Of a DNA stretch of 43,809 nucleotides, positions 1 to 15,913 are shown in pieces. Position 1 is the first letter of the stretch. The number at the start of each line of letters is the position of its first letter. A model generated the notes under the pieces. It ran no database searches and was not told the origin of the DNA. It saw only the letters and a program-made list of their open reading frames with translations. Made by a program: the position numbers and the translations under genes. The stretch lies in the sequence record NC_013649.2; one strand, given 5' to 3'. This DNA is from Klebsiella phage KP34.

Positions 1-216
1 CCCTCACCCTGAACGCGCCCAATTGCCCCCATAGGGGGTGCCTAGCGCATAAAAGGAGGGGGCGGGGTGCCCCGGTGGGCCTACTAGGGCGCACTAGAGC
101 GCCTCAGCGGGCCTGTGCTGCGTTCTAGGGCTATCGCTAGTGTTACCCTATGGCTATGCCTGTGCGTGGCACTGCGTGGCTCCTGTGCGCTCTCTGTGGG
201 CCATAGGGGTGCGCTC
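1..216. repeat. Left copy of the direct terminal repeat (DTR); identical to 43594..43809
   Basis: Positions 1-216 (ccctcaccctgaacgcgcccaattgcc ... ggggtgcgctc) recur exactly at the right end of the window. Terminal redundancy is the hallmark of T7-like linear genomes. Confidence 0.9.
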
Positions 217-476
217 TGCCTTGCTTATTTTGCGCGTACATAGTGGGTCACAGTGTGTGTCCTAGTGGGCCTGCCTAGTGCGCTGTAGTGCAGCACGGTG
301 ATATCCCTAGTGCGTACTAGGCTATCCACTGGCTATCCTTAGTGCTTTACATTGTGCTGATTCTATGCTACGCTGCGCGCTCCCCACTAGGGCGCACATC
401 CACCACACCGCACTACCCGGTGCTATCCCTTTGCTACCCCTTGCTCTTACTTTCATTCGAAAGCTAATCTGAAATG

Positions 477-494
477 ATGTTACAGGAGTAGGAG
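477..494 (+). promoter_or_regulatory. Candidate phage-RNA-polymerase promoter P1 (ATGTTACAGGAGTAGGAG); left-end position analogous to T7 phiOL
   Basis: One of three identical copies of the 17-nt core ATGTTACAGGAGTAGGA (477..493, 22199..22215, 33723..33739), all on the + strand. The length and the trailing TAGGAG resemble T7/SP6-type promoters (T7: TAATACGACTCACTATAGGGAGA). Confidence 0.5.
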
Positions 495-660
495 GGTTTT
501 AGGGCACTATATACACTACTACTCACTATGCACTCACTAGTACCTACTAGTAATGCCCTGTATGACTGACCGTAGGGAAGGAAGCATTACCTACCCATTA
601 ACTAGCCTCATAGCTTAACCGCTCCCACAGCTTACGCTGTATGGTCGCTGGCTATGAGTC

Positions 661-747
661 TATGTAGCACTATGTAGTAGTGGCTAGTAGTGGCTAGAGC
701 TATCCCTAGTGTGGCTCTATGTTGGCTCTAAGTATGGCTCTAAGTAT
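661..747. repeat. Array of short periodic direct repeats in the non-coding left end
   Basis: TATGTAG occurs twice (661, 671), TGGCTAG twice (681, 691), TGGCTCTA three times (712, 723, 735), and tandem GGCTCTAAGTAT at 724-735 and 736-747. Period is about 10-12 bp, there is no coding potential, and the array sits just inside the DTR as the T7 left-end repeats do. Confidence 0.7.
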
Positions 748-785
748 TTGCCCTGCTTACCCTTTTTGCTCCCAGTGATAAAAAG

Positions 786-830
786 TTGAAAATAGTACTT
801 GCTTCTTTTGGTTCAATGCAGCTATAGTTC
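786..830 (+). promoter_or_regulatory. Candidate host sigma70 early promoter Pa (-35 TTGCTT 799-804, 18-nt spacer, -10 TATAGT 823-828) preceded by GATAAAAAG (777-785)
   Basis: Reasonable -35/-10 pair directly downstream of the terminal repeat region and upstream of the first genes. An A-rich GATAAAAAG motif precedes a TTGA hexamer. Confidence 0.4.
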
Positions 831-918
831 AATCACCGGGAGGCACTGAGGCGCTAACCGGGGTCGAGCCGGGAGGCTCCGCCGGATTAAAGCTAGATAG
901 TGTGAAGGGTTAGATACT

Positions 919-960
919 CGATAAAAAGAGTTGACACCGCGAAGAACATAAGCTAGATTG
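919..960 (+). promoter_or_regulatory. Candidate host sigma70 early promoter Pb (GATAAAAAGAG 919-929, -35 TTGACA 930-935, 17-nt spacer, -10 TAGATT 953-958)
   Basis: Perfect -35 consensus with optimal spacing and an acceptable -10. The same GATAAAAAG upstream motif as Pa. Position matches the T7 A1-A3 early promoter cluster. Confidence 0.55.
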
Positions 961-1276
961 AATCCAAGCAGTAAGTAGTAAGCTGGTTTGCGGGGAGGCC
1001 CAGTACCTTAAATGGTACGATGACGACCAAGCCTATACAGTCAGCCAAAAAGCAGGACCGCAACGGAGCCGTAGGGCTAGAGGGCGGGGCTAACAAGCCG
1101 AACACTACCGGGGCGCTGAGACACTGCCCCGTAAAAGAATAGTGTCGAGACCTGAACCACAGGTTCCACGGTAGTGCAGTGGGTAACAAGGTTAAGACTA
1201 AGCGTCATCCGTGCTGGGGCAGCGGTGCCACCTACGGGGCAAATGGCGCTTAACATTAACTTTGAGGGAGTACACA

Positions 1277-1492
1277 ATGAAATATCGTGAGAAGTTAGCG
1301 CAACAATTCGCTGGGCTGGAGAAGTTATCCGGTTCGGAGTTGAGAAAGCGCCGGGATGCACTGAACCGCGCAGGGTATATGCGGATGAAGCAGTCCGCTG
1401 CATTCAGTACGAATGTACGTGGTAAGACCAAAACAAGGGGCGGTAGCAAGGTCCCACAAGGTTGGTACACTGCCGGACAGTTCGGACACTAA
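1277..1492 (+). CDS. Hypothetical small basic early protein (72 aa)
   Basis: The 93-aa ORF in the track starts at 1211; an internal ATG at 1277 is preceded by GAGGGAG (1265-1271). Lys/Arg-rich product; first gene after the promoters. Confidence 0.45.
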   Translation: MKYREKLAQQFAGLEKLSGSELRKRRDALNRAGYMRMKQSAAFSTNVRGKTKTRGGSKVPQGWYTAGQFGH

Positions 1493-1499
1493 TTACAGC

Positions 1500-1524
1500 C
1501 TATAGCATCCTACGGGGTGCTATG
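1500..1524 (+). promoter_or_regulatory. Conserved intergenic RNA hairpin, copy a (10-bp stem, UACG loop); candidate RNase III site or RNA stabiliser
   Basis: CTATAGCATCC-tacg-GGGTGCTATG lies immediately after the stop of gene 1277..1492. A near-identical element follows gene 2339..2512, with a compensatory A-U to G-C change in the stem. Confidence 0.5.
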
Positions 1525-1563
1525 TGAAGTAATTACCTAAACAACCAACCAACGAGGTGCGTC

Positions 1564-2139
1564 ATGACTCATTCAACTGGTAAAGTATTCAAACTCACCG
1601 CCGCTGGCAGCATCCGCAAAGCGCTGGGCGACGTAGTGGAAGCAAAGCGTAACATCACTATCAGCGCGCTGTTTCACGGTCTGGTAAGCAGCAACGTTTC
1701 CTGGGCTACGGATATGCAGCGCAGCGACGCCGCTGACTTCGATATGGTGCTGCGTACGCTGTTGCTAATCAAGTTTAACAAGGAGTCCGGCAAGTACGAA
1801 TTCAATGCTAAGAAGTGCTATGCGTCTGCTGAGAAGCTGGGCATCGAACTGGATACTATGCGTCTGGACTATAAACAAGCTGACAAGCAGGGCCGCGAAG
1901 TGATTGTAGCCAGCTTCTATAGCTCCTGTATGGCCCTGTACGCTGCCGAAGCGGAGCAGGTGAAGAATGACGCACTGGATGCCGATGCAGTGCGCTTGCA
2001 AGCGCTGGGGCGCGTTAAAAACGCCATCAAGAAGGCTAAAGAGACTGGTGTAAGCGATGCTGACCTAGTGTCTATGCTGGTATCGCAGGGCGTGGACGTA
2101 CGCGCTGTACTGGACGCAACTTTGAAGGTGGCAGCATGA
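1564..2139 (+). CDS. Hypothetical early protein (191 aa)
   Basis: ORF with SD GAGGTG 5 nt upstream of ATG 1564. No recognisable motif. Confidence 0.7.
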   Translation: MTHSTGKVFKLTAAGSIRKALGDVVEAKRNITISALFHGLVSSNVSWATDMQRSDAADFDMVLRTLLLIKFNKESGKYEFNAKKCYASAEKLGIELDTMRLDYKQADKQGREVIVASFYSSCMALYAAEAEQVKNDALDADAVRLQALGRVKNAIKKAKETGVSDADLVSMLVSQGVDVRAVLDATLKVAA

Positions 2140-2338
2140 TTTATAAAGTCCCGGTTATCAAGTGGTGGGCATTGTGCCCAGCGGCCAACGATGCCGACGC
2201 CTTCGACAGTTCCACAGATACCCGCTATAGCCCTTGGTTTTACTTGGGTTTAGGGGACAACGTATAGCGTGATTTCTCATAGGGTATTCTAGCGAGTACC
2301 CTAGAGGGCAATCATGCCACAACAAAGGAGAGTAAACT

Positions 2339-2512
2339 ATGCCATACCGTAACCGCGCCCAACGTCGTGCTGATGCTGCTGAAATGCGTAGCAAACGTAA
2401 ACCCAGCGCCGCCCAGAAGTCACTGGCGCGTCCTAGCCGCCAGAATGCCATCACTGGGGGCTTGATTAAGCTGAGCGACTTCTATTCGCGTATCGGTATC
2501 AGCGTACTTTAG
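2339..2512 (+). CDS. Hypothetical small basic protein (57 aa); missed by the ORF track (<60 aa)
   Basis: ATG 2339 is preceded by a strong SD AAAGGAGAG (2324-2332, 6-nt spacing). Translates MPYRNRAQRRADAAEMRSKRKPSAAQKSLARPSRQNAITGGLIKLSDFYSRIGISVL. Conflicts with minus-strand ORF 2158..2454, which I regard as spurious. Confidence 0.55.
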   Translation: MPYRNRAQRRADAAEMRSKRKPSAAQKSLARPSRQNAITGGLIKLSDFYSRIGISVL

Positions 2513-2520
2513 TAGCAAGC

Positions 2521-2545
2521 CTATAGCGTCCTATGGGGCGCTATG
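2521..2545 (+). promoter_or_regulatory. Conserved intergenic RNA hairpin, copy b (10-bp stem, UAUG loop)
   Basis: CTATAGCGTCC-tatg-GGGCGCTATG is 9 nt after the stop at 2512. Shares flanks AGCCTATAGC and GCTATGTGAA with copy a. Confidence 0.5.
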
Positions 2546-2573
2546 TGAATGCAACTGGCGTATGAGGTTTCAT

Positions 2574-2789
2574 ATGAAAGCAATACTGGTTTATCCGGGC
2601 CATGAACTTTATGAGGCCTGCCGAAACATGGAGCAGGACTACGAGTTCACAGTGGTTATATTAACTGGGGACCATTTTACCGACACCGTGCTTGAGTATA
2701 TTGATACTCACACCGAAATGGCTGCCCGCACTGTGCTGGACGCCGTGAATCTTGGCATTATCAACGACTGGAGACAACTATATGGTTAA
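2574..2789 (+). CDS. Hypothetical early protein (71 aa)
   Basis: The track ORF starts at ATG 2562. GAGG (2564-2567) gives a proper SD for the in-frame ATG at 2574 instead. Confidence 0.5.
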   Translation: MKAILVYPGHELYEACRNMEQDYEFTVVILTGDHFTDTVLEYIDTHTEMAARTVLDAVNLGIINDWRQLYG

Positions 2790-3045
2790 TGTATTCAACA
2801 TCATTGTGACCAGCGCTATGCTGGTGCTGGGCAACGACGTAAACAACCCGGTGCCCTACTGCACAGTGCAGTTGCAGCAACCGGCGGAGCAGGAACCGCA
2901 GCCGCGCCCTGAGTATGACCTCTTTGAGGATCCCGAGGGTGGTTGCAAAGAGCTAGGTGCGCGTATTCTTGCGGCGGTGCAGGAGCAGTACCCGAACGCC
3001 GCTGTAACGCTCACTGTAGACGGTAAGAGCAACAACGATATTTGA
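2782..3045 (+). CDS. Hypothetical early protein (87 aa), mildly acidic
   Basis: The track ORF 2752..3045 overlaps the previous gene. The in-frame ATG at 2782 (MVNVFNII...) with GGAGAC upstream is more likely. Confidence 0.5.
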   Translation: MVNVFNIIVTSAMLVLGNDVNNPVPYCTVQLQQPAEQEPQPRPEYDLFEDPEGGCKELGARILAAVQEQYPNAAVTLTVDGKSNNDI

Positions 3046-3053
3046 GGTAGGGT

Positions 3054-3233
3054 ATGCACGGAAAGAATCCTGAAACGCTGCTTATGCGTGGGCAGCAACC
3101 AACAATCGAAGGGCTGGCGCGCGAGTACAACGCGAAGGCAGCACTGCGCCAGCACTACGAGCGGCAAGCGCAGCGCCTGGGTATGACTCTGCGCGGCTAC
3201 TGTCTGCGCTTTAACGTGCGGGGTGTGGTATGA
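3054..3233 (+). CDS. Hypothetical small protein (59 aa); missed by the ORF track
   Basis: SD GAGGTAGGG (3043-3051) precedes ATG 3054. The stop overlaps the next start in an ATGA junction at 3230-3233. Translates MHGKNPETLLMRGQQPTIEGLAREYNAKAALRQHYERQAQRLGMTLRGYCLRFNVRGVV. Confidence 0.6.
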   Translation: MHGKNPETLLMRGQQPTIEGLAREYNAKAALRQHYERQAQRLGMTLRGYCLRFNVRGVV

Positions 3234-3439
3234 AGTACGACGTGTATAAAAATAAGCGCAGTGGTATATACTACTGCGTTAACCTTATGGGTGGTATCAA
3301 TGAGTGGCACCTGTTACTACCAGATGAGCCGCCCTACACGCTGGAAAGAAGCACGTGGCGCGCCGGTGATGTAATCACCCGACCGGATGTATTCCAGCTC
3401 ATAGCCCGCAACGTGGTATTCAAGGACAGCGTATGCTGA
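3230..3439 (+). CDS. Hypothetical early protein (69 aa)
   Basis: ORF; its start overlaps the stop of the upstream gene (ATGA). Confidence 0.55.
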   Translation: MKYDVYKNKRSGIYYCVNLMGGINEWHLLLPDEPPYTLERSTWRAGDVITRPDVFQLIARNVVFKDSVC

Positions 3440-3777
3440 CAGTAGACGAAACAGCGCTGCTGTGCTGGCGTCTGCTGGAAACGCAGGGCAAGTGCGGCTG
3501 CACTTGGGAAACATTCAAAGAGGTTCCTAATGAACTCAAGAAAATTGTACCTGTTGAGCGGAGAAACATTAGAATCCGCAAGCAGGATTCAACGGTGGTG
3601 CTCACAACCTACCGAGAGTATACAGAATCTGCCGCGCGGCAGTTGCAAGAGCACATTCAGTTCGATGTGGTTGCAGCACTACTACGGCACGGATATCGTG
3701 GAGCCTATACAAGATTTAGGGCGGCTGTGCGCTCGTATTATAAGCAAAGACAGCTCGCTGCGTGGTATGCACGCTGA
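3433..3777 (+). CDS. Hypothetical early protein (114 aa)
   Basis: ORF with SD AAGGA 7 nt upstream. ATGCTGA start/stop overlap with the previous gene. Confidence 0.6.
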   Translation: MLTVDETALLCWRLLETQGKCGCTWETFKEVPNELKKIVPVERRNIRIRKQDSTVVLTTYREYTESAARQLQEHIQFDVVAALLRHGYRGAYTRFRAAVRSYYKQRQLAAWYAR

Positions 3778-3817
3778 ACTCTCAATGCACGATGAAATAC
3801 AATTAACCCAGGAGCAA

Positions 3818-5497
3818 ATGAAAATGCAAGAGACTAACACAGCACCTATCGAATGGAAAGTAGTATTACCGGAAGGTGCAAACGCACTGCCAATGAAAGA
3901 GTCAATGTATTCCAGTGGTGATTACTGGACCCCGTTCCAGGGCTTGCAAATGCAGGGCGCTGACCATCCCCACACTGAGGGCCCGCTGCAGGCGCTTATG
4001 GGTCTACGCACTGTCAGCATGCTAACTCCGGGCTTAGAGGTAACTATAGGCGAGATGCTGCACCCAGAGTATCACGCAGTAATGACGATTCGAGGCCCGT
4101 TGCAAAAGGTGGACCTGTATAACAGCGGAACTTTCTACGAACTCTTTGCCCCGGCGCGAATCACCATCGACAACAAGTTCTGGGAACGCCGCCGCGACTT
4201 CTATGAGGGCGATGATGTAGTGGTTGAGCGCGTGGTTGCGTGCGTGGAAGAGTTCACCGGTTACAAGGTGCACAAGCAGGCCGTGCAGTTATTCGAGCGC
4301 ATTATGCTTGCGCCAGAGCAAGCACGGCGCCGAGAGTATACTGGATACGATTACGGCAGTCACATCCGTGACATGCACGCCGCGGCGCTGCTCATGAAGT
4401 TGCACGGTTTTGTGGTATCTCGCTTCGCCGTACCCTTGGGCTTTGGTTTCCGCAACGGAGAGCCCATCGTGATGCTGGGGCAGCTGCGTATGCACAAGGA
4501 CTTCGCCGCGATTACTGAGTACCGCTGCGTAGAGATGCGCGTAGGTAAGTGGCTCGCTAACTACTACGGAAATGGTGTGGACTTCCGCGATGCTATCGAA
4601 GACCTCAAAGCTATGAACGTAGAGCCTACAACGTACCTGTGCAAGACCGAGCAGGAATGGTACGACGCCTACGAGAATGGCCCGGGTAGCTGCATGAGCG
4701 GGTACTCCTTTGAGCACAGCCCTGTGCGGACGTATGCTACCACCAGCCACGGGCTGCCAGATAATGGGCTGCGCCTGTTCATACAGTACACCGGGGAACT
4801 GTTCGGGGATGACTTTGAAGTGCAGGCACGGGCAATCGTTAACACAGAAACTAACGAGTATGTTCGTGCTTATGGCAACGCTGCGGATGCAATCCTGCGC
4901 GGACATGGGTACACCAGAAACACTGAGTGTCTCGAAGGGGTAATGCTGGCGCGTATACCACACCCGCAACACACCGGTGCGGTGCTGATGCCGTACCTCG
5001 ATAGCACCCAGTGCGGAGTATATGAACATGGGGAGGACGCATTTGTAATTCGTGACGCTTACGAGTACGAGGCGCAAGAAGCCGATGGATACATCTACGT
5101 CGGTACAGAATCTGCTCGGTGCTGCTGCTGTGAGGAGCGATACTCCGTAGATTACATGCAGGAAACCGCAGATGGTGATATGGTGTGCGATGGCTGTATT
5201 GAAGAGGAAGAGTTTGTACATGCAGTTGGACGTCGGGGTCTGTACAACCGATGGAACTGTACCTGGTCTGATTACCACGGTGCCTATGTATACGACAGTG
5301 ACCTCGCGCACTGTGCGGTAGAAGGTGTAGTGCACGACCAAGCAGAACTGGTGTATGCGCAGGGATTTGAGGTGCTTATTGAGCACGCAGAAGAACACCC
5401 AGTGCACGGGTTAATTCTCACTGAGCATGCAGCTGATTGCTTGGGAGAGAAGTACCTGGGCAACGATGACGAAGAAGAAGTAGAGGAGGCAGCTTAA
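3818..5497 (+). CDS. Large early protein of unknown function (559 aa) with a cysteine cluster (CCCCEERY...CDGC) and an acidic C-terminus
   Basis: Long ORF (track: 3530..5497). I prefer the in-frame ATG at 3818 (MKMQ...), preceded by AGGAGC (3810-3815), which avoids overlap with 3433..3777. No family recognised by eye. Cys-rich segment CCCCEERYSVDYMQETADGDMVCDGC; tail DDEEEVEEAA. Confidence 0.75.
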   Translation: MKMQETNTAPIEWKVVLPEGANALPMKESMYSSGDYWTPFQGLQMQGADHPHTEGPLQALMGLRTVSMLTPGLEVTIGEMLHPEYHAVMTIRGPLQKVDLYNSGTFYELFAPARITIDNKFWERRRDFYEGDDVVVERVVACVEEFTGYKVHKQAVQLFERIMLAPEQARRREYTGYDYGSHIRDMHAAALLMKLHGFVVSRFAVPLGFGFRNGEPIVMLGQLRMHKDFAAITEYRCVEMRVGKWLANYYGNGVDFRDAIEDLKAMNVEPTTYLCKTEQEWYDAYENGPGSCMSGYSFEHSPVRTYATTSHGLPDNGLRLFIQYTGELFGDDFEVQARAIVNTETNEYVRAYGNAADAILRGHGYTRNTECLEGVMLARIPHPQHTGAVLMPYLDSTQCGVYEHGEDAFVIRDAYEYEAQEADGYIYVGTESARCCCCEERYSVDYMQETADGDMVCDGCIEEEEFVHAVGRRGLYNRWNCTWSDYHGAYVYDSDLAHCAVEGVVHDQAELVYAQGFEVLIEHAEEHPVHGLILTEHAADCLGEKYLGNDDEEEVEEAA

Positions 5498-6543
5498 TGT
5501 TCTTGAATCCGCACGGGATTGATATGCAGCTGCTATTGCAGATACTGCAAACGCACCGGCCTAGCTGGGCAAGCACTAAGTGGTTTGAGCCGCTGCTTAT
5601 GCAAGCGCTGGGTAGTGGTATGCACTACGTAAAGGACAAGCACGGGAACTACTTCGTGCTGGTGGGGGACTCAGAGCAAAGCGACGTAGCGTTTACGTCT
5701 CATCTCGATACGGTGGCCCGCCCAACCAGCGCTGCGCCGGACGTCGGCTGCACTAACAAGGGCGTGCTGTTCGTAAAGAATCCGCAACAAGCTGACTGCT
5801 TGGGGGCGGACTGCGGTGCCGGTATCTACCTGATGCTAGAGATGCTGCGGCGAGGTGTGCATGGACGCTACTGCTTCTTCGTGGATGAGGAGGTTGGTTG
5901 CGAGGGCAGCGCTGCATCAGTCAAGGATGACACTGGGTTTTGGACTGGGGTCAAGGCGATGATTAGCTTTGACCGACGCGGCGACGGAATCATAACGCAT
6001 CAACGGTATATGCGCTGCTGCTCTGACACCTTTGCCAAGACCCTAGCAGAGCGCCTGGGACGCACGGAGCAGCACTTGCAGAAGGGGGTATATACTGACT
6101 CAGCTGAGTTCGTTGGTATCATTCCTGAGTGCACCAACGTCGGTGTAGGGTACATGCACGAGCACACCCCGGATGAGGTACTGGACCTGAACATCCTGGG
6201 GCAAGTGCTTGAGCGGGTACTGCAAGACGGTACGTTCTCGCACCTTCCGATTGAGCGGGACCCGAAGGTAGTAGAGCCAGACCAATGGCTCTCTGCATCG
6301 ACACTCAGTTTACGGCAGCCGTGGGACATGCCCCCGGCCGAGGACCCGCAGTTACTGGCTGCGTTCCGGGAAGTGTCGCAGCTTTCTAAACAACAATTGA
6401 TTAGCTGGGTGCAGGAGAATCCAGAGAAGGCGGCGGAGTACATAATGGTGTTCTCCGATTACGGCTTTAAAGAAGAGCTGATTGAACTAGGCACCCGAGT
6501 CGTAGAAGACTGGGGCGGATACGATAATATTGTGGAGGGTTGA
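5497..6543 (+). CDS. M20-family (ArgE/DapE/CPG2-like) metallo-amidohydrolase/peptidase homologue (348 aa)
   Basis: VAFTSHLDTV matches M20 signature 1 ([LIV]-x-[LIVMF]-x-[GSA]-H-x-D-[TV]-[STAV]). ...GADCGAGIYLM...YCFFVDEEVG matches the signature-2 tail ([DNGM]-E-E-x-[GSTNE]). A C-terminal His lies in YMHEHTPDE. SD GAGGAGG 8 nt upstream; start overlaps the stop of the 559-aa gene (TAATG). Confidence 0.7.
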   Translation: MFLNPHGIDMQLLLQILQTHRPSWASTKWFEPLLMQALGSGMHYVKDKHGNYFVLVGDSEQSDVAFTSHLDTVARPTSAAPDVGCTNKGVLFVKNPQQADCLGADCGAGIYLMLEMLRRGVHGRYCFFVDEEVGCEGSAASVKDDTGFWTGVKAMISFDRRGDGIITHQRYMRCCSDTFAKTLAERLGRTEQHLQKGVYTDSAEFVGIIPECTNVGVGYMHEHTPDEVLDLNILGQVLERVLQDGTFSHLPIERDPKVVEPDQWLSASTLSLRQPWDMPPAEDPQLLAAFREVSQLSKQQLISWVQENPEKAAEYIMVFSDYGFKEELIELGTRVVEDWGGYDNIVEG

Positions 6544-6545
6544 TT

Positions 6546-7013
6546 ATGTCTAAGTTTAAAGTTGGCGATAAGGTTGTACGTACAGTGCGCGGCCGTGAGG
6601 ATGAAGACTTTCTGTGTATGCTCGGAGAAGCTGCCTACTATACAGTTACGTCTGTGTCCTTTGGAGGTTGCTGGTTGCAGGTAAACGGCGTGTCTAAAGT
6701 GTACGACGAACGTCCGTGGGCCGCTACCAATTTCGAGCGGTACCAAGAACCGAAGGATGAGCTGCCGCCAGTCCAGTCTAGTGTATCCTATCTAAACACT
6801 AAACGAGACCCTGGAAACGACCAACGGCTGGTCTTGGAAAGAGACAGTGAGACTGATGAAGGCCTACTCTACATCGGGATAATCCCTAGAAAGGGCAGCA
6901 CCCGGGCAGAGCAAGAGATTGGTATTAATATGAGCCCCGACGCTGCACTGCAGTTAGCACACGACCTGCGCCGTATGGCTATGGAAATCAAACGTAAGGG
7001 GAAAGCACAATGA
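6546..7013 (+). CDS. Hypothetical protein (155 aa)
   Basis: SD GGAGGG (6532-6537) precedes ATG 6546. The track start 6540 is an upstream TTG. Confidence 0.65.
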   Translation: MSKFKVGDKVVRTVRGREDEDFLCMLGEAAYYTVTSVSFGGCWLQVNGVSKVYDERPWAATNFERYQEPKDELPPVQSSVSYLNTKRDPGNDQRLVLERDSETDEGLLYIGIIPRKGSTRAEQEIGINMSPDAALQLAHDLRRMAMEIKRKGKAQ

Positions 7014-7207
7014 GTAGAATTATTAAGTACGAAGCGCCTAAGCGTGTTGTAGTCGGCATTCCATTCACCTGGGGATTGTGTAATGCTTGGGCTATAAAGG
7101 TGGAAAATGGGGACATCTACTATTTATCTAATGGGTCAAAGGTATTAGAGTCAGAAGAAGAGATACTCCCAGACATCATTTATGCCAATCGCATAGAGAT
7201 TAAGTAA
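7010..7207 (+). CDS. Hypothetical protein (65 aa)
   Basis: SD AAGGGGAAAG upstream; ATGA overlap with the previous stop. Confidence 0.55.
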   Translation: MSRIIKYEAPKRVVVGIPFTWGLCNAWAIKVENGDIYYLSNGSKVLESEEEILPDIIYANRIEIK

Positions 7208-7992
7208 TGGACCAGCCCTGGCTTAGGGCGTGCAAGCGCCTGGCCGTGGGGCAGAGGGCACGCTTTCGGTGCTGCGGCAGGGACGCCGCCGGGGTGCTCT
7301 ACAATAACCCGGATGCCTGGGAATACTATTGCCACCGCTGTAAACAGGTGGGCAAGGAGCGCAAGCAGTACCAGCGCATACAGTTACAGGAAGAGCCGAG
7401 GGTGCAGCCCTCTGCACCTGCAGATGCAATTTGCATTAGCCAAGCGCCTGCGGAAACGCAGAGTTTTATTTACGGATTCCTGACCACAAAGGGAATCATG
7501 CCTGAAATGGTGGAGGATGCAGAATGGAGCAAAGAGAAACAGCGGATAATCTTCCGTGTCGGAAGTGCTGCTCTGGGCCGTGCAGTGCATGCCCGACAGC
7601 AACCGAAGTGGGTAATGTACGGCCAACCAATACCATACGCTGTCGCGGCACCTGCCGTAGCACCGGCTGTAGCTGCGGCCGCACCTCTAAAGGTCGTGCT
7701 CACCGAGGACTATCTATCAGCCCGGAAGATACAGCACGCAGTTACGAGCTACAGTGCGTTGAACGTGCAGGCTATAGCTATGCTGGGTACACGCTTGCCT
7801 ACGCCGCTGAGGGCTTGGCTGATTCAGAATCACCCGGAAGTGGTTATGATGCTGGACAATGACCCTGCGGGGCACGCCGGGGTAGCAGCAGCACGTCGAG
7901 CATTGCGCCCGTTCATGCAGTGTCGTGAGCATTACTTCGCTGCGGACCCTAAGGATGCAGAAATCAAAGAGATTCTGGAGGCTTTACAATGA
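7207..7992 (+). CDS. DNA primase (N-terminal Cys zinc-binding region plus TOPRIM domain), 261 aa
   Basis: N-terminus FRCCGRD...YYCHRCK (zinc ribbon). C-terminal VVLTEDYLSARKI...VVMMLDNDPAGHAG is a TOPRIM-type E...DxD signature. It precedes the helicase, as in phiKMV-like phages with separate primase and helicase. Confidence 0.8.
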   Translation: MDQPWLRACKRLAVGQRARFRCCGRDAAGVLYNNPDAWEYYCHRCKQVGKERKQYQRIQLQEEPRVQPSAPADAICISQAPAETQSFIYGFLTTKGIMPEMVEDAEWSKEKQRIIFRVGSAALGRAVHARQQPKWVMYGQPIPYAVAAPAVAPAVAAAAPLKVVLTEDYLSARKIQHAVTSYSALNVQAIAMLGTRLPTPLRAWLIQNHPEVVMMLDNDPAGHAGVAAARRALRPFMQCREHYFAADPKDAEIKEILEALQ

Positions 7993-8183
7993 GTATGGGT
8001 ATCTGGGTTTTAATCATGGCGATTAATGGCAGTGCGGTTAGCGACACAGACTTCGCTGCGCTAACCACTCAAGAGTTCACAACGGAGGCCGCCTGCAACA
8101 AGGCTGCCAAGGCGTTCGAAGAGAAGTTTGACACATTCAGGGTGTATACCGCTAAAGCAATCTGCGTTCCGAAGGAGGTTTAA
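7989..8183 (+). CDS. Hypothetical small protein (64 aa) with a hydrophobic N-terminus
   Basis: SD GGAGG before ATG 7989; MSMGIWVLIMAINGSAV... Confidence 0.5.
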   Translation: MSMGIWVLIMAINGSAVSDTDFAALTTQEFTTEAACNKAAKAFEEKFDTFRVYTAKAICVPKEV

Positions 8184-9464
8184 TTGGACCTAATAGTAGT
8201 TAAAGCGATGTGCACGCAGAAGGTGTGGAACCGACTGCGTGAACAGATACCCAAGAGCATGCTAGCGCCGGACACCTCGAACCTGCTGGACTGGGTGGGG
8301 CTGTATTGGAACACGTACCCGGAGCACCAGGAGGTGCAGTGGGACGCGATGCAGAGCATGCTCAATCTCCGGGCGGGGCACCTATCCCGGGAAGAGCGGG
8401 TAATCATGGACGAGCTTATGCGGGGAGTACAAGCCGTACCGCAGGATTCTGTGGTGGGGATTGTCCAGACCCTGAATGAGCTGGCCTACAGCGGGGAGGT
8501 AGCAGCGCTGACGCAGCGCTACCAAGACGGAGAGGAGATTGATTACCTGCTGGAAATGAAGCACCTACAGCGCAAGTACGGTGACGGTGCTGCTGTTCAT
8601 GATTCGCTACTGGAATGGGAGAGCGGAAGTGTTGACGAGATACTTGCCGCGACTGACGAGAGCGGCGGTCTTAAACTGGGCGTGTTCGAGCAACTCTCTA
8701 GCAACATCCGGGGCCTACGAGGCGGGGACTGCATCGCAGTGGCTGCCCCTGTGGACTCTGGTAAAACTAGTCTGCTTGCTGCTATTGCTGTGGACTTTGC
8801 TGAGCAGATGCAGCAGCAACCGGAAGTGTACGGGGACCGCCCGATTCTCTGGCTGGTTAACGAGGGTCCGGCGACGCGTACAGTGCCGAGGGTATATCAA
8901 GCGGCGCTGCACTGGACTTTGGCTGAGATTAAGGACCGGCACAGTAAGCAAGAGTTCGTGCCAGCCTACCTCAAGAAAGTAGGTAGGGCTGACCGGATTC
9001 GTGTTAAGGCTGCGCACTCCTTGACGATGGCGCAGATATCCACGCTCATGGAGGAGATGCGCCCTGCGGTAATCATCATCGACATGGTGGCGAACATCCG
9101 TGGCGGCACTATGGAGAGTGAGCACCAGAACCTCGAGGCGAAATGGCAGGAGCTGCGTATCCTTGGGTGCGAGAACGACTGCGCTATTGTAGGGACTATG
9201 CAGCTTTCACTCGAAGGTTACAACATGCTGTTCCCACCGCTCACCGCTATGAAGCAGAGCAAGATTGGTGTACAGGGTGCCCTGGACTTGGCGATTATGA
9301 TGGGGTGCTTGGACAGAAACGAGCAGCCGCACATGCAAAACGTCCGCGGTATCAGTACTCCGAAGAACAAGATGGCACTATCTGGCAAAGAATCGCTACT
9401 GCAATTCGAGGTGGCATTCGACCCAGGTAGGTGCCGCTTTAACGAAGGGCAGATTAACAAGTGA
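8184..9464 (+). CDS. Replicative DNA helicase (DnaB/T7 gp4 helicase-domain-like), 426 aa; probable TTG start
   Basis: Walker A AAPVDSGKTSLL and a RecA-like core. The TTG at 8184 has a perfect SD AAGGAGG (8172-8178, 5-nt spacing) and follows the upstream stop directly. Confidence 0.85.
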   Translation: MDLIVVKAMCTQKVWNRLREQIPKSMLAPDTSNLLDWVGLYWNTYPEHQEVQWDAMQSMLNLRAGHLSREERVIMDELMRGVQAVPQDSVVGIVQTLNELAYSGEVAALTQRYQDGEEIDYLLEMKHLQRKYGDGAAVHDSLLEWESGSVDEILAATDESGGLKLGVFEQLSSNIRGLRGGDCIAVAAPVDSGKTSLLAAIAVDFAEQMQQQPEVYGDRPILWLVNEGPATRTVPRVYQAALHWTLAEIKDRHSKQEFVPAYLKKVGRADRIRVKAAHSLTMAQISTLMEEMRPAVIIIDMVANIRGGTMESEHQNLEAKWQELRILGCENDCAIVGTMQLSLEGYNMLFPPLTAMKQSKIGVQGALDLAIMMGCLDRNEQPHMQNVRGISTPKNKMALSGKESLLQFEVAFDPGRCRFNEGQINK

Positions 9465-9470
9465 CTTCCC

Positions 9471-9506
9471 TAGCGCCTTCCTAGAGGGCGCTATGTAGGT
9501 ACATAG
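9471..9506 (+). promoter_or_regulatory. Related hairpin element, copy c (TAGCGCC/GGCGCTA stem plus adjacent CTATGT/ACATAG stem) after the helicase gene
   Basis: Shares TCCTA..GGGCGCTATGT with copy b. Lies 7 nt after the helicase stop. Confidence 0.4.
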
Positions 9507-9514
9507 GGGGCTTC

Positions 9515-9673
9515 ATGAAGGTAGATTACACTGGACTTATCCGGCACGGATACGTAGTACGTCACCGCACTACCGGCGAGTACTGCGTGGTCGAGCTGGG
9601 TGCCCGTTATAATCAGGTGGAGTGGGAACTACTTTATCCTATACACCTAATAGGGGATTTGATTTATGCTTAA
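9515..9673 (+). CDS. Hypothetical small protein (52 aa); missed by the ORF track
   Basis: ATG 9515 is preceded by AGGGGG (9505-9510). Translates MKVDYTGLIRHGYVVRHRTTGEYCVVELGARYNQVEWELLYPIHLIGDLIYA. No other ORF occupies this stretch. Confidence 0.35.
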   Translation: MKVDYTGLIRHGYVVRHRTTGEYCVVELGARYNQVEWELLYPIHLIGDLIYA

Positions 9674-9821
9674 ACCGCCCGACATTAATTATCTCGACGA
9701 AGAGGTAATCAAGGCGTACGCTGCATCTGCACGTACTTCACGTAAAAGCTATGCGCTTGACAGTTCTCAGCTGATTGTGCATTTGGCTATCAACAAGGCG
9801 CGGAGGATTAATTGGAAATGA
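9666..9821 (+). CDS. Hypothetical small protein (51 aa); missed by the ORF track
   Basis: ATG 9666 (ATGCTTAA overlap with the previous stop) with AGGGGA upstream. Its stop overlaps the start of the HNH gene (ATGA). Confidence 0.35.
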   Translation: MLKPPDINYLDEEVIKAYAASARTSRKSYALDSSQLIVHLAINKARRINWK

Positions 9822-10282
9822 ATTGGGGAGACTACCTCTACTACGACGACGGTAAGTTATACTGGATTCGTCACAGTAAAAACGGGGCCTGTCAGCCGGG
9901 GAAAGAGGCAGGGTATATGCAACCCACGGACGGACGTTGGGTGATTGGTTTAAATGGGAGGACGCACAAACGTGCGCGCATCGTCTGGGAAATGTTTCAC
10001 GGGCCAATTCCAAAGGGCACAGTCATAGATCACATCAACCGTGTGAGGGAGGACGATAGGATTGAAAACTTGAGGGCGGTGGATGTGCCCACTAACAATA
10101 AGAATAAGACCGTAGACCGGCGCAATCAATCCGGTGTTTCGGGGGTTCGCTGGGACCCCATCCGGGGTAAGTGGGAGGCTAATATAGGCCGCACACGATT
10201 AGGCCGCTTCACCTCCAAAGCGGAGGCCATTTCCGCCAGGTTAAACGCAGAGCAGTCGCATGGGTATCTAAGGAGCAGTTAA
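9818..10282 (+). CDS. HNH homing endonuclease with an AP2-like DNA-binding domain (about 154 aa)
   Basis: ...VIDHINRVREDDRIENLR...N (HNH core) followed by SGVSGVRWDPIRGKWEANIGR...RLGRFTSKAEAISAR (AP2-type fold, common in phage homing endonucleases). The track start 9812 is a TTG; ATG 9818 is preferred. Its stop overlaps the DNA polymerase start. Confidence 0.8.
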   Translation: MNWGDYLYYDDGKLYWIRHSKNGACQPGKEAGYMQPTDGRWVIGLNGRTHKRARIVWEMFHGPIPKGTVIDHINRVREDDRIENLRAVDVPTNNKNKTVDRRNQSGVSGVRWDPIRGKWEANIGRTRLGRFTSKAEAISARLNAEQSHGYLRSS

Positions 10283-12642
10283 TGTACCAAATAATGCACA
10301 TAGATTTAGAGGTCGAGAATTATGAGTACTACGGGAACGTGGCCTCTCCTTACTGCCCGGACAACTACGTAGTAGAGAGTGCGTACCGTATTGATACTGT
10401 GGACGACGCCGGTCAAGTGCACGTAGGTGACGTTTTCAGTGTACGGTTTAACAGTAAAGAGGAGTTCCTAGCGGACGTAAACGGCGCTCACCAGTGGTTA
10501 GCTATACCCGAACATTGCACCATGCTGGTGATACACAACATGAGCTTTGAGGTTTCTTGGTTCCTGTCGTACCAACGGCAGCACTTTGAGGCGTTCTTAA
10601 AGCGTGGTGGCCGGGTGTACTGTACCCAGCATGGTGAGTACATCGCAACTGACTTCCAGAGCATGTACCCGTCCTTGGATGAGACTGCCCCTAAGTATGG
10701 GGGAACACATAAAGTTGACGGAGTAAAGATTCTGTGGGAGCAGGGGCGGAGAACGTCGGAGATTGACGCCACCCTGCTGCACGACTACCTTGTAAACGGC
10801 GACGTGCCAAATACAGCACTATGCTTCTACGGGCAGTGCGCTATCTTCTCAGAACGTGGACAGATGCAGTATGTCTACGAGAGGATGGACGCGGCCCTAG
10901 CCTGGAGTTTTTGTCAGTGGTTCGGTCTGTTCGTTAATATGCCAATTGCACGCAAGAACCAGGAGGAGCAGGAGCAGCGCATCCGTGAGATTAAGCAGGA
11001 GCTGCAGCAGTACATCCCGAAGAACCTACCGGAGACGCTGGATTTTAACTTCGGCTCGGACTTCCATATGTCTGCACTGGTGTACGGTGGGCCTATCAAG
11101 TATCGCAAGAAGGTTCCCTACGACCCTCCGCAGTACGTAAAGTACGATGCCTACTTAGCAGACGTCAATGGAACGTTGCAGTATATTGACGTGTCCGACT
11201 GGCAGCCAGAATGGACGTACCCGCGGACACTGTATAAGTCCGGCAAGAACAAGGGACTACCCAAAGTATTCCGCCTTGATACCGAGGAGAAGAAGCTCAA
11301 GTGGGAGGACGACCTTTACTTCTGCCCGGGTCTAGTGAACATCCAGGAGCTGCCGGAAGTTATCCGGGAGAAGTACGCAGAGCGCGGAGAGTTCCGGCAG
11401 GCGCGCGCACTGCAGGACGGCACTCCTGTGTACAGCACCAGCACCGACGCAATGGAGGCGCTGGCTCGACAAGGTTTCGAGTTCTGCCGATTGGTAAACG
11501 AGCTAGGTGCTCTAGAGAAAGACACAGGGACCTATTACCTGAGAACGGAGTACAACGAAGATGGGTCAGTTAAAAAGACCTCGGGCATGCTTCAATACGT
11601 CATACCTCAGAACCCTGATGGTTCAGGTATTATCCACCACCGTCTTAACACCTGTGCCACTGTCACCGGGCGACTGTCGGGCTCTAACCCGAACCTCCAG
11701 AATCTACCGCGCGATGGGACGAGCCGGGTTAAACAGATGTTCACCTCTCGTTTCGGAGAATCTGGTCGTATCACTGAGGTTGACTACTCTGCCCTCGAAG
11801 TGGTCATGGGGTGTGTTCATACGGGAGACCGTAAACTACTAAGCCTCCTGCAAGCTGGGACGGACATGCACTGTTACCGCCTAGCGTTCAAGGAGGGCAA
11901 AACCTACGAAGAGATGTACGACCTCTGCCACAACGCCGATGGGCCGGACTATAAGTACTGGAAGCAGCAGCGTACGGACATTAAGCCTCCGAGCTTTGCT
12001 GCACAGTACGGGGCTACGGCTAAAGGGATTGCGTTTGCTACGGGTTGTACAGTGGAGTATGCGCAGTCGTTCCTGGATAACGAGGCGAAGCTGTTCCCAG
12101 ACACTATCGGATTCCGCGCTGTTGTCAAGGAAGAGGTAGAGCGTACCGGAGCAGAGGGGCGTCTGTACCGCGAGCAAGCTGATGATGGCAGTTACCGAGT
12201 CTATCGAATTGGGACGTGGACCAGCCCGGCGGGTGCCCGCTACAGCTTCCGTCAGAAGGAGCAGTGGAAAGAGGTTGTGCCTGAGCAGCGTAAGCAGAAG
12301 GTCATGGACTACAAGGAAACCGAGATGGCTAACTACTGGTGCCAAGGGGAAGCATTCTTTCTGATGGCAGTAGCGGCTGGTATGGTTCTTCGTGCACTCC
12401 TGGCCCGTGACTGGTTCGACAATCAGGTGTGCCTGATTACGAACGTACACGATGCATTGTATCTGGACAGCGCCAACCCGGAGGTTGGAAGAGAGGCGAG
12501 CCTGTTGGTCAAGCAGTGCATGGAGGATGCGCCTAAGCGTATTCACCAGCTCTGGCCTAACTACGGTATCATTGGTGAGGTGCCCTTCCCGGCGGAAGCT
12601 GAAATGGGTACGAGCATGTACAGTAAGGAGAAGGTAGAATGA
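10282..12642 (+). CDS. DNA polymerase, family A (T7 gp5-like) with a 3'-5' exonuclease domain, 786 aa
   Basis: Exo motif LVIHNMSFEVSWF. Motif A DYSALEVV. Motif B RTDIKPPSFAAQYGATAKG. Motif C NVHDALYLD. SD AAGGAG upstream. Confidence 0.95.
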   Translation: MYQIMHIDLEVENYEYYGNVASPYCPDNYVVESAYRIDTVDDAGQVHVGDVFSVRFNSKEEFLADVNGAHQWLAIPEHCTMLVIHNMSFEVSWFLSYQRQHFEAFLKRGGRVYCTQHGEYIATDFQSMYPSLDETAPKYGGTHKVDGVKILWEQGRRTSEIDATLLHDYLVNGDVPNTALCFYGQCAIFSERGQMQYVYERMDAALAWSFCQWFGLFVNMPIARKNQEEQEQRIREIKQELQQYIPKNLPETLDFNFGSDFHMSALVYGGPIKYRKKVPYDPPQYVKYDAYLADVNGTLQYIDVSDWQPEWTYPRTLYKSGKNKGLPKVFRLDTEEKKLKWEDDLYFCPGLVNIQELPEVIREKYAERGEFRQARALQDGTPVYSTSTDAMEALARQGFEFCRLVNELGALEKDTGTYYLRTEYNEDGSVKKTSGMLQYVIPQNPDGSGIIHHRLNTCATVTGRLSGSNPNLQNLPRDGTSRVKQMFTSRFGESGRITEVDYSALEVVMGCVHTGDRKLLSLLQAGTDMHCYRLAFKEGKTYEEMYDLCHNADGPDYKYWKQQRTDIKPPSFAAQYGATAKGIAFATGCTVEYAQSFLDNEAKLFPDTIGFRAVVKEEVERTGAEGRLYREQADDGSYRVYRIGTWTSPAGARYSFRQKEQWKEVVPEQRKQKVMDYKETEMANYWCQGEAFFLMAVAAGMVLRALLARDWFDNQVCLITNVHDALYLDSANPEVGREASLLVKQCMEDAPKRIHQLWPNYGIIGEVPFPAEAEMGTSMYSKEKVE

Positions 12643-12860
12643 GTATAAAGTCTGGCAGTGTTGTGGAGTTGATGGACCTGGGACCTGAGCCGATAGACCC
12701 GAGGTATGCAGCATACTTCACCCCAGGTACAAGGCACACGGTTCTATTCTTCGACCCGGTTACTGGTGAGATAGAACTAAGTTACCCTGGACTGTTAGTA
12801 AGTAGACCGGGGGACGGTGTCACCTTCTTCCCGGGGGAATATAGGCTTATAGAAGAGTAG
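12639..12860 (+). CDS. Hypothetical protein (73 aa)
   Basis: ORF with ATGA overlap with the polymerase stop. Confidence 0.55.
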   Translation: MSIKSGSVVELMDLGPEPIDPRYAAYFTPGTRHTVLFFDPVTGEIELSYPGLLVSRPGDGVTFFPGEYRLIEE

Positions 12861-12917
12861 TGATAGGTGGACCCTTGGGTGGTGTAGGGGGTTAGGGTAA
12901 CACATAAATACGCTGGG

Positions 12918-12952
12918 GTCAACTAAATAATTAAATAAAATTATTTGTTGAC
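12918..12952. repeat. AT-rich near-perfect palindrome GTCAAC-T-AAATAATT-AAATAA-AATTATTT-GTTGAC within a 140-bp AT-rich island; candidate origin or operator
   Basis: Seen directly. The only strongly AT-rich non-coding stretch in the genome (about 12880-13020). It lies between the polymerase module and the next genes. Confidence 0.5.
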
Positions 12953-13020
12953 TCTGGCTTGATTCTGTGATTCCACGAGAATTAATGTGATACGAGTAGG
13001 AACAACATAAGAGAGTTACG

Positions 13021-13299
13021 ATGAGTAAAACATTCCTTATTGATGTAGCCTTTAGCACTAAGTTAGTAGTCTCAAAGGAGGAGCTAGGTGGTATGCGCGG
13101 ATGGATTAAATCGCGCAAACTACCAGAGCACTTTCAAAATTACCTGGACTCGCTAGATGATGACGCGGCACTGCAGGCGTTTATAAAATACGCCACCAGG
13201 GAGTGGTTCAAGGGGGAGCTGGAGCGCCAGAGGAAACAGGATGGGGGTGCCACTACGTACTCCCCGGTAAAAGTAACGGTACGGGAGAAACAACACTAA
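13021..13299 (+). CDS. Hypothetical protein (92 aa)
   Basis: ORF after the AT-rich island with a weak SD (AAGAGAG). Confidence 0.55.
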   Translation: MSKTFLIDVAFSTKLVVSKEELGGMRGWIKSRKLPEHFQNYLDSLDDDAALQAFIKYATREWFKGELERQRKQDGGATTYSPVKVTVREKQH

Positions 13300-14336
13300 T
13301 GGCGCGCGTAAGTCTAATCAAACTATTCACCAAAGAGCAGCACCAGGCAATCCTGGGCCAGTACTTGGATAACTCTACTGCTGCCAAAGCGTACAACGTA
13401 CTACTGGCTTACGGGGAAATACCACAGTACAAGGAGAGTGCTGAATACTACGGCACCCTTGGTACCGCGGAATGCGTGGTGTCCCGCCAGCTTGTGCGCT
13501 ACTGGCGCAGCATCTTCATGGATAACAAGGGCAGCAAGTCAAAGGCTAACAATGCCCTGATGCAAGCCCGAAAACTAATTCAACCTTCCCCAACGGATGA
13601 TATTGGGGATACCTTTGTACCTGAAACATGTCGGCGTGTGCTTGTTATTGGGGACTTGCACGAGCCGTACACACATCCGGACGCGTATGACTTTTTACGC
13701 ACTGTGCGGGATGAGTACTGCCCAGACATTGTGGTGCAGATAGGCGACGAGACGGATGGGCACGCTATTAGCTTTCACGATAGCAGTCCGGAGTTGGACA
13801 GCGCTGGGGTGGAATTAGAGAAGGCCAAGCTCGGCCTGGAGAAACTGCACGACCTGTTTCCTAACATGCTCCTGTGTGATTCTAATCACGGCTCCCTTGT
13901 CTACCGCCGGGCCAAGGCTCACGGACTCCCTGTACAGTTCATTAAGAAGTACCGGGACATCCTGTTCCCGGAGCACGGGGCACCGGGGTGGAGTTGGGGT
14001 GATGCTTGGGATTTGAATACTCCGCTGGGTACTGTGCGATTCCAACATCAAGTATCTGGGGACCTGCTGCTCAACGCAGCCCATGAACGTAAGTCCATGG
14101 TGATTGGACACTTCCATGGGAAGTTAGATATACAGTATGCCGCTAGCAGCACTGCCCTGTACTTTGGTGCGCACTGCGGTTGTTTAATCGACAACAAGAG
14201 TCTGGCATTTGCTTACGGCAAGTTGTCAAGAAGCAAGCCGATTCTAGGGTGTATGGTGATTACAGATGGATGCCCGCAAATCATCCCCATGCTATTGGAC
14301 GACACCGGCCGGTGGTGTTCTAGAGTACAACCCTGA
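13299..14336 (+). CDS. Calcineurin-like metallophosphoesterase (possibly an Mre11/SbcD-type nuclease or phosphatase), 345 aa
   Basis: Motifs GDLHEP (GDxH), GDETDGH (GDxxDxxH), SNHGS (GNHE-like) and IGHFHG. I chose the ATG at 13299 (TAATG overlap with the upstream stop) rather than the track start at 13203. Confidence 0.8.
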   Translation: MARVSLIKLFTKEQHQAILGQYLDNSTAAKAYNVLLAYGEIPQYKESAEYYGTLGTAECVVSRQLVRYWRSIFMDNKGSKSKANNALMQARKLIQPSPTDDIGDTFVPETCRRVLVIGDLHEPYTHPDAYDFLRTVRDEYCPDIVVQIGDETDGHAISFHDSSPELDSAGVELEKAKLGLEKLHDLFPNMLLCDSNHGSLVYRRAKAHGLPVQFIKKYRDILFPEHGAPGWSWGDAWDLNTPLGTVRFQHQVSGDLLLNAAHERKSMVIGHFHGKLDIQYAASSTALYFGAHCGCLIDNKSLAFAYGKLSRSKPILGCMVITDGCPQIIPMLLDDTGRWCSRVQP

Positions 14337-14775: not shown

Positions 14776-14816
14776 GCACACTTAAACATTGTGTAGCAAA
14801 TAGACTTGGAGATTAT

Positions 14817-14984: not shown

Positions 14985-15035
14985 GCCCTGCATCTGCACG
15001 TAAATATCATTTAAACTAAACGAGGACGTAATTAT

Positions 15036-15860: not shown

Positions 15861-15883
15861 TAAACCCTAACCTAAACTAATAC

Positions 15884-15904
15884 GGCCCCTCCTAGGGGCC
15901 TTAT
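15884..15904 (+). terminator. Intrinsic terminator-like hairpin GGCCCCT-CC-AGGGGCC followed by TTAT
   Basis: Perfect 7-bp GC-rich palindrome 24 nt after the stop of the 274-aa gene. Confidence 0.5.
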
Positions 15905-15913
15905 AGGAAGCCT

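Follow-up and report, generated by a model that had tools for sequence, protein, structure and literature searches.

We have analysed a stretch of 43,809 nucleotides from Klebsiella phage KP34 (the window; sequence record NC_013649.2), and we are concerned here with a pair of adjacent genes in it, gp10 and gp11. KP34 is the type of the genus Drulisvirus (Autographiviridae). The open reading frames (ORFs) of gp10 (KP-KP34p10, 559 residues) at 3818–5497 and of gp11 (KP-KP34p11, 'putative peptidase', 348 residues) at 5497–6543 are both present where the original prediction, made from the letters of the window, had placed them. They lie on the plus strand, as do all features within them that are given below. 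The first gene matches PHROG 6980/13313 with E = 0, and the second codes for what appears to be a di-metal peptidase of clan MH that has no lid domain. The pair was found to recur far beyond its genus, with an intact metal site in gp11 and a nearly invariant set of residues in gp10.

It should be stressed that the literature already contains the genes and their 'peptidase' label, and that it is the breadth and strictness of the pairing, its occurrence on plasmids and integrative and conjugative elements and the invariant site of gp10 that appear to be new. The gene positions in the published KP34 table agree exactly with ORFs of the window for p09 (3433–3777), p11 (5497–6543), p14 (7207–7992), p16 (8184–9464), p19 (9812–10282) and p20 (10282–12642). 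In that table gp11 is labelled "putative peptidase", and both genes are included in the published core gene list of the 'Kp34likevirus' group. The region 3500–6600 has a nucleotide identity of ca 90% to 246 phage records, almost all of them from Klebsiella Drulisvirus, in which gp11 is called 'peptidase' or 'putative peptidase' and gp10 'hypothetical protein'. In the PhiM1-like phages, too, a hypothetical gene precedes a core gene for a 'putative peptidase' (IPR007484, M28), and this peptidase is the sole annotated member among their conserved early genes. The earlier description of the pair as unusual is thus correct relative to T7 only, since it is a published core pair of the KP34-like viruses with a counterpart in the PhiM1-like ones. 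None of the PADLOC models matched any of gp09 to gp12 at E values up to 0.1, and a scan of positions 1–9000 for promoters and terminators stayed at chance level and was uninformative.

The start of gp10 has been called in two different ways. The ATG at 3818 is located 40 nucleotides past the stop codon of gp09, and a direct reading of the sequence gives a Shine-Dalgarno element, AGGAG (3811–3815), 2 nucleotides upstream of it. In many GenBank and metagenome gene calls the ATG at 3530 is used instead, which yields a protein of 655 residues and an overlap of 248 nucleotides with gp09. The choice between the two was tested by counting synonymous and non-synonymous substitutions in the overlap (3530–3774) among 49 relatives, in all three frames. 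The gp09 frame has 968 synonymous versus 604 non-synonymous substitutions, while the corresponding numbers are 162 versus 1449 in the frame of the gp10 extension and, similarly, 73 versus 1516 in the third, non-coding frame. Since the substitutions in the extension frame are indistinguishable from those in the non-coding one, the 559-residue start is the better supported, and the 655-residue models are over-extended by 96 codons. Despite this non-coding pattern, the extension frame is open for ca 124 codons upstream of ATG 3818 in 42 of the 50 sequences compared.

At the junction of the two genes (5485–5499, direct reading), the TAA stop codon of gp10 (5495–5497) overlaps the ATG of gp11 (5497–5499) in the sequence TAATG, and a Shine-Dalgarno element, GAGGAGG, is found inside the end of gp10 at 5485–5491, that is, 6–12 nucleotides before the gp11 start. 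With both the overlap and the upstream element in place, the translational coupling that had been proposed from the TAATG at 5497 is plausible.

The catalytic domain of gp11 spans approximately residues 10–245 (5524–6231). Four motifs are found in it, FTSH69LD71TV, LGAD105CGAG, VDE131E132VG and GYMHEH223T, and the residues H69 (5701–5703), D105 (5809–5811), E131/E132 (5890–5892 for the ligand E132) and H223 (6163–6165) align with the ligand motifs of the PepT-like structure 3gb0. E131 is the general base and D71 belongs to the HxD motif. D159 (5971–5973), in the sequence SFDRRG, is a candidate for the fifth ligand, assigned by its invariance and its position. The alpha/beta catalytic-domain fold of clan MH and its set of five ligands (His, bridging Asp, Glu, Asp/Glu, His) with a general-base Glu are all found in gp11. 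The seven residues H69, D71, D105, E131, E132, D159 and H223 are invariant in an alignment of 36 diverse homologues and are kept in 254–256 of 256 non-identical homologues, proteins and loci taken together. Because the full di-metal ligand set is conserved in this way, the presumably cytoplasmic gp11 is apparently a catalytically competent two-metal hydrolase and not a pseudo-enzyme.

As to the family within the clan, a profile built from the 36 sequences matches the PepT-like M20B structures 3gb0 and 3rza at E ~1e-13. The only Pfam model above its threshold is M28 (PF04389), with a marginal score of 22.9 bits against a gathering cut-off of 21.3 and a match limited to residues 55–164; the same model is also precomputed on several gp11 homologues, and the single-domain architecture of gp11 is that of an M28 enzyme. 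The protein further matches PHROG 4191 'peptidase'. Pfam M20, on the other hand, gives no match at E up to 1, and no M20 model recognises the protein, the NCBIfam PepT-like score being 16.6–24.2 bits against a cut-off of 274 and those of the ArgE/DapE-type models weaker still. The lid/dimerisation domain characteristic of M20 is not there either, some 120–150 residues being missing between the region of the EE motif and the last His. Judged from these comparisons, the best statement of membership is that gp11 belongs to clan MH, with an M28-like architecture and a PepT-like sequence. The assignment of gp11 in the original prediction to the M20 family, as an ArgE/DapE/CPG2-like enzyme, therefore stands with regard to the M20/M28-type fold and the two-metal site, and is not supported with regard to the family itself, as the lid is absent and Pfam M20 is not matched.

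It is useful to compare gp11 with the characterised branches of the clan. The PepT-like M20B enzymes (3gb0, 3rza; TIGR01883) have the lid/dimerisation domain that gp11 lacks, whereas gp11 has a helical C-terminal extension of ca 100 residues, and its family is always found on mobile elements and usually paired with gp10. The M28 aminopeptidases of Aeromonas and Streptomyces have a single catalytic domain, an open site and the same ligand set as gp11, and carry out aminopeptidase chemistry; RefSeq calls a plasmid homologue of gp11 an 'M28 family peptidase'. M28 enzymes are mostly secreted, while inspection of the gp11 N-terminus, which was by eye only, reveals no obvious signal peptide. The M42 enzymes (TET/PepA) have a PDZ-like insertion and form dodecamers, and the short link at residues 140–179 of gp11 is too small to hold such an insertion. 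The C-terminal extension itself (residues 246–348; 6232–6540) is modelled with lower confidence as a linker and a helical bundle, with a predicted local distance difference test score (pLDDT) of 40–77 and helices at 284–347. It varies in length and sequence between subfamilies, with a recurring '...NP..A..(Y/L)....G' motif.

The absence of the lid has consequences for the chemistry that can be expected. The M20 deacylases (DapE, CPG2, ArgE) owe their small-molecule pocket to the lid together with the dimer partner, and without this domain the active site of gp11 would be open, as in the M28 aminopeptidases. An open site for the termini of peptides or proteins is thus more likely, or one to which a partner contributes the missing part, and the most probable reaction, as far as can be read from the sequence, is the removal of an N-terminal residue or the hydrolysis of a terminal amide bond in a peptide or protein substrate. 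We have also considered that gp11 is an M20-type (ArgE/DapE/CPG2-like) amidohydrolase acting on a small molecule, such as an N-acyl amino acid, a peptidoglycan precursor, a folate/glutamyl conjugate or an immune signalling metabolite, with gp10 as an accessory metal-binding protein. The full di-metal site is conserved, as this would require, and clan MH holds many small-molecule amidohydrolases (MEROPS, general knowledge). However, gp11 lacks the domain that, in M20, covers the active site and contributes residues to substrate binding, M28 alone passes its Pfam threshold, and gp11 is strictly linked to a partner of 450–700 residues; we know of no M20 deacylase with such a linkage. We consider this scenario unlikely, while still taking it seriously.

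Turning to the partner, neither KP34 gp10 nor any of 136 relatives, scanned individually, matched Pfam, NCBIfam, PADLOC or the PDB sequences, which agrees with the earlier statement that it has no recognisable family. This multi-domain protein is not an orphan, as an exhaustive HMMER scan gave a family of 331 clusters at 50% identity, the common part being residues ~230–470. The AlphaFold model is confident over residues ~110–550, and pLDDT is below 50 at residues 1–29, 42–67 and 78–103. The N-terminal ~105 residues (3818–4132), which the codon differences identify as the fastest-evolving part, are probably disordered according to this model.

The conserved core of gp10 (residues 271–400; 4628–5017) contains the near-invariant S291-C292-M293, Y306, R338, Y352-G353 and Y393/D395. 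Among 352 non-identical members of the family, C292 and R338 are kept in every one, D395 and M293 in 350, S291 in 348, and Y306, Y352 and Y393 in 346–348. This Cys/Arg/Asp/Tyr set looks like an active site or a ligand pocket on a weakly GNAT-like alpha/beta fold, the order of elements in the core being beta-alpha-alpha-beta-beta-beta-alpha-beta-beta. The resemblance to GNAT has clear limits. The scores are weak, with PDB 3i9s and FemA (1lrz) among the structural matches; helix a4 is missing, a3 is short, R350 is only 75% conserved, and the invariant set differs from the GNAT catalytic pattern. At the sequence level no GNAT signal was found for gp10, and an hhalign comparison of the core with RimI (approximate query sequence) gave a probability of 0.1.

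Downstream of the core there is a predicted C4 zinc ribbon, C435-x2-C438 ... C457-x2-C460 (5120–5197), its four cysteines being kept in 327–339 of the 352 sequences (93–96%), and beta-hairpin repeats likewise follow the core. The profile matches of the ribbon in the PDB are limited to zinc-finger proteins, with E values of 0.56–2.9. The metal-binding cluster CCCCEERY...CDGC proposed earlier survives in the form of this ribbon, while the CCCC run itself does not, as it contributes only two of the four cysteines and C436 and C437 are not conserved. The poly-acidic tail, NDDEEEVEEAA (5462–5494, direct reading), is present as described, with a net charge of −9 over residues 536–559, and is restricted to the KP34-like subgroup. 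DNA binding by the zinc ribbon was also considered and is unlikely, because both gp10 (isoelectric point, pI, 4.7) and its family (median 4.8) are acidic.

Several other searches with gp10 were made. A fold search in BFVD returned uncharacterised phage proteins only. The PcfJ-like model PF14284 had no match in 136 family members (E limit 10 for 50 of them, 0.001 for the other 86), and the only sign of PcfJ was a BFVD structural match to a 'PcfJ like protein' with E = 0.06 and a probability of 0.14. A profile search with the C-terminal zinc-ribbon/hairpin region gave Drulisvirus fragments only, and did not recover the module in common with a phage 'amidoligase' that BFVD had hinted at.

The selection acting on the two genes can be compared through the non-synonymous fraction of differing codons among Drulisvirus relatives. 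With a value of 0.18, gp11 shows the strongest constraint among the five genes of the early region that were compared, the primase gene being at 0.37. For gp10 the value is 0.40 overall, 0.25 in the core and 0.47 in the N-terminus. A constrained core with a variable N-terminus fits the pattern expected of a targeting subunit, and a rigid catalytic gp11 together with a gp10 that has a variable end fits the picture of a catalytic and a specificity subunit.

The linkage of the two genes was followed over increasing distances. The order gp09-gp10-gp11 is kept in all 58 Drulisvirus-like loci and in a locus resembling Shigella phage Buco, with 48% and 63% identity. Four gp10 homologues that are only 22–26% identical to that of KP34, on different types of phage contig, all have a gp11 homologue as the next gene. 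Starting instead from IMG/VR peptidase homologues of 33–45% identity, a gp10-family ORF is found in 41 of the 47 divergent loci with usable upstream sequence. The majority of these ORFs touch the start of the peptidase gene or run into it; another two are in divergent orientation, and one, a weak match, lies downstream. In representative GTDB genomes, 54 of the 73 bacterial loci that could be used have both genes. No third gene universally linked to the pair was found. The original prediction had named three observations that would overturn it, namely a fold outside M20/M28, loss of the metal ligands in homologues and no co-occurrence of the two genes in relatives, and none of these was made.

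This strict linkage and the translational coupling would also be consistent with gp11 being a maturation peptidase that trims gp10 (at its disordered N-terminus or acidic tail) or other proteins of the element, gp10 then being a zymogen-like effector and gp11 its activator. The first ~100 residues of gp10 are indeed predicted to be disordered and are variable. However, the enzymes of clan MH act as exopeptidases, taking off one or a few residues, and not as endoproteases, and several lineages have the peptidase but no gp10. The release of effector domains by embedded peptidases is known from the entry-phase proteins of phages and plasmids, but those of the polyvalent proteins are zincins, M20/M28 not being mentioned (PMC5512222). 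On balance we find maturation improbable.

The genomic surroundings of the pair give information about when its products may act. In podophages the pair is located upstream of the genes for primase, helicase and DNA polymerase, a position that is defined as early in the PhiM1-like phages. In bacterial loci it is found with a T7-type terminase and an integrase in T7-like prophages and, more often, in blocks with ParB-like, DUF2958, DUF7146-Toprim and YAcAr/DUF2493 genes, these neighbours recurring in 7–13 of 36 loci. On plasmids and integrative and conjugative elements (ICEs) it stands directly upstream of the DUF7146-Toprim gene. On the conjugative plasmid pMC4 of Sphingopyxis indica (MOBP, MPF_T; 5969–16056 of our locus L233), for example, DUF2958 and ParB genes are followed by a gp10-like gene, an 'M28 family peptidase', a toprim gene and DUF2493, and one metagenomic pair adjoins a MobA/VirD2 relaxase gene. 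After the pMC4 block come HEPN-domain and Abi-family genes, with a gene for an SOS-response-associated peptidase upstream of the block, which makes this a mixed establishment/defence neighbourhood.

Plasmid pVL1_2 of Methylobacterium indicum (L234, 6562–15960) has tandem diverged copies, in the order gp10-like, gp10-like, peptidase, small ORF, gp10-like, peptidase. Such tandem duplicated modules suggest a diversification of paralogues. Two pairs are also present in a Mesorhizobium locus (L174), and another locus (L219) has two gp10-like ORFs.

A homologue of the peptidase alone is found in Thermus phage P23-45, for which the temporal gene classes have been studied experimentally. The gene, gp56, is situated in the left-end early region, ca 3.7 kb from the pre-early gene 64, at the end of the genome that enters first. 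It is a solitary peptidase (L235, 4941–5825) with all ligand motifs intact, and no gp10-like ORF was found within 5 kb of it.

Because the pair occurs in the early regions of phages as well as in the establishment regions of plasmids, a role in the entry phase is favoured; the context points to a function that is exercised right after the entry of mobile DNA, be it phage or conjugative.

The same context could be explained if the pair served a housekeeping purpose in replication or establishment rather than in an immune conflict, that is, if it processed or activated a component that starts replication, by maturing a primase, a single-stranded DNA-binding protein or an initiator, or by removing a blocking group. 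The pair is directly upstream of the primase, helicase and DNA polymerase genes in phages and of the DUF7146-Toprim gene on plasmids and ICEs, and its core status in the company of these genes, along with the very strong purifying selection on gp11, would find an explanation in such a function. However, the order of early and middle genes in podophages is conserved anyway, so adjacency is weak evidence, and a clan-MH peptidase is not part of the known replication systems; at least, we are aware of none that has one. The tandem duplication and diversification on plasmids, and the variable gp10 N-terminus, look more like a diversification of targets. We regard a housekeeping role as rather unlikely.

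Yet another option is that gp11 degrades host oligopeptides to supply phage protein synthesis, gp10 being functionally unrelated. Its closest characterised relatives (PepT, PepV, PepD, TET/M42) are indeed general cytosolic peptidases. The hosts are, however, already rich in peptidases, and this proposal leaves unexplained why the partner is nearly obligate, why conjugative plasmids carry the pair next to ParB, DUF2958 and Toprim genes, and why it stands right at the beginning of the infection programme. Nutrient scavenging is accordingly given very little credence here.

An instructive point of reference is ArdC of plasmid R388, which is needed in the recipient to overcome restriction and which is described as a function of a conjugative plasmid that acts in the recipient cell (PMC7213743). 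The likeness is one of functional analogy only, both cases being entry-phase combinations of a recognition part and a metallopeptidase on mobile elements. There is no homology: in ArdC a zincin HExxH protease and a DUF1738 domain that binds single-stranded DNA are joined in one chain, whereas gp11, a clan-MH exopeptidase, is separate from its acidic partner gp10 (pI 4.7), which is unlikely to bind DNA. A literature search for M20/M28 peptidases in anti-defence or in plasmid leading regions found nothing.

We propose that gp10 and gp11 make up a two-part enzyme of the entry phase, either two-step or two-subunit, in which gp10 confers specificity or modifies the target and gp11 acts as exopeptidase. 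The two would be expressed as a coupled module from the early region that precedes replication. Here gp10 would recognise or chemically modify a target, a protein or peptide encoded by the host or by the element itself, and gp11 would hydrolyse a terminal amide bond of it, immediately after the mobile DNA has entered the cell. The outcome would be a host-takeover, establishment or counter-defence function that is common to phages and conjugative elements. As a complete package this proposal is tentative, and we would give it slightly less than an even chance. Our confidence is much higher for the observations on which it is built, namely the gene structure with its coupling, the fold of gp11 and its intact metal site, the invariant residues of gp10, the linkage and the early or establishment context, than for what we infer from them, which is the cooperation of the proteins, physical or functional, the peptide or protein substrate, the timing and the biological purpose.

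A number of points weigh against the two-part enzyme. Most known anti-defence genes are accessory and fast-evolving, while gp11 is a strongly conserved core gene, and this favours a housekeeping step linked to replication or takeover. Clan-MH enzymes include non-peptide amidohydrolases, so that the substrate may also be a small molecule. A complex between gp10 and gp11, or their cooperation, is deduced from the linkage of the genes, and a Rosetta-stone search of 390 family proteins found no gp10-peptidase fusion. Peptidases with no detectable gp10 partner exist on jumbo-phage contigs, in Bacteroidota genomes and in Thermus phages, which means that the peptidase can work alone or with a partner that has diverged beyond recognition. 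Finally, a literature search for functional, transcriptomic or essentiality data on KP34 gp10 and gp11 found nothing beyond the 'putative peptidase' annotations.

With regard to the solitary forms, the large and jumbo contigs (L061, L067, L104, L109/L138, L143 and L148; 52–465 kb) carry longer peptidase homologues, of ~386–440 residues, and no clear gp10. In two of them, L067 and L148, an ORF of ~320 residues just downstream of the peptidase has a weak match to the gp10 core (E = 3e-9 and 1e-6, respectively), and the gene order may be reversed there.

Within the proposed two-part scheme, an anti-defence or host-takeover role is a hypothesis for the purpose. In a more specific and speculative version, gp10 would act as a transferase or ligase that depends on a Cys (GNAT/Fem/L,F-transferase-like), or else as a target-recognition subunit with diversifying N-termini, and gp11 a lid-less aminopeptidase. 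Together they would constitute a previously unrecognised entry-phase system of lytic phages, T7-like prophages and conjugative plasmids/ICEs. Either the pair would alter the terminus of a host protein, N-degron engineering that marks a factor of immunity or proteostasis for degradation being one example, or it would destroy an immune signal linked to a peptide or amino acid; in this way it would disarm defence or take over the physiology of the host. We judge this version doubtful as it stands; if it is true, gp10 would represent a new enzyme family and the pair a new class of enzymatic counter-defence.

Some observations concern other parts of the window. The gene gp09 (3433–3777, 114 residues) is directly upstream of gp10 in all Drulisvirus-like loci, with 70–95% identity, is 42% identical in the Buco-like locus (L059) and is not found beside the distant pairs; it has no Pfam or PADLOC match. 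An exact direct terminal repeat of 216 bp is present at 1–216 and 43594–43809, as expected for a complete phiKMV/KP34-like genome, the repeat annotated in KpV41 being 214 bp. An HNH endonuclease ORF (KP34 p19, 9812–10282) ends exactly at the start of the DNA polymerase gene (10282), in the manner of a typical homing-endonuclease insertion. The HNH genes in this region vary among relatives, and Dlv622 has two others.

For therapy directed against Klebsiella pneumoniae, the KP34-like (Drulisvirus) phages belong to the candidates in widest use, and gp10 and gp11, the two largest genes of the pre-primase region of KP34, are functionally blank. An immediate practical consequence concerns annotation, as the 655-residue gp10 models in many GenBank records are to be shortened by 96 codons. 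For the biology, the peptidase is intact in every homologue examined, is tied to the Cys-Arg-Asp partner family in most proteobacterial phage, prophage and plasmid lineages, and sits with plasmid establishment genes, and this suggests a common, so far unstudied enzymatic step at the entry of DNA. If this step is of the housekeeping kind, it would be an unrecognised requirement for starting the replication of incoming DNA. If it instead serves counter-defence or takeover, hundreds of annotations of the type 'hypothetical protein + peptidase' would receive a function, and a field dominated by stoichiometric inhibitors and nucleotide-signal sponges would gain a mechanism that is catalytic, namely terminal proteolysis or modification.

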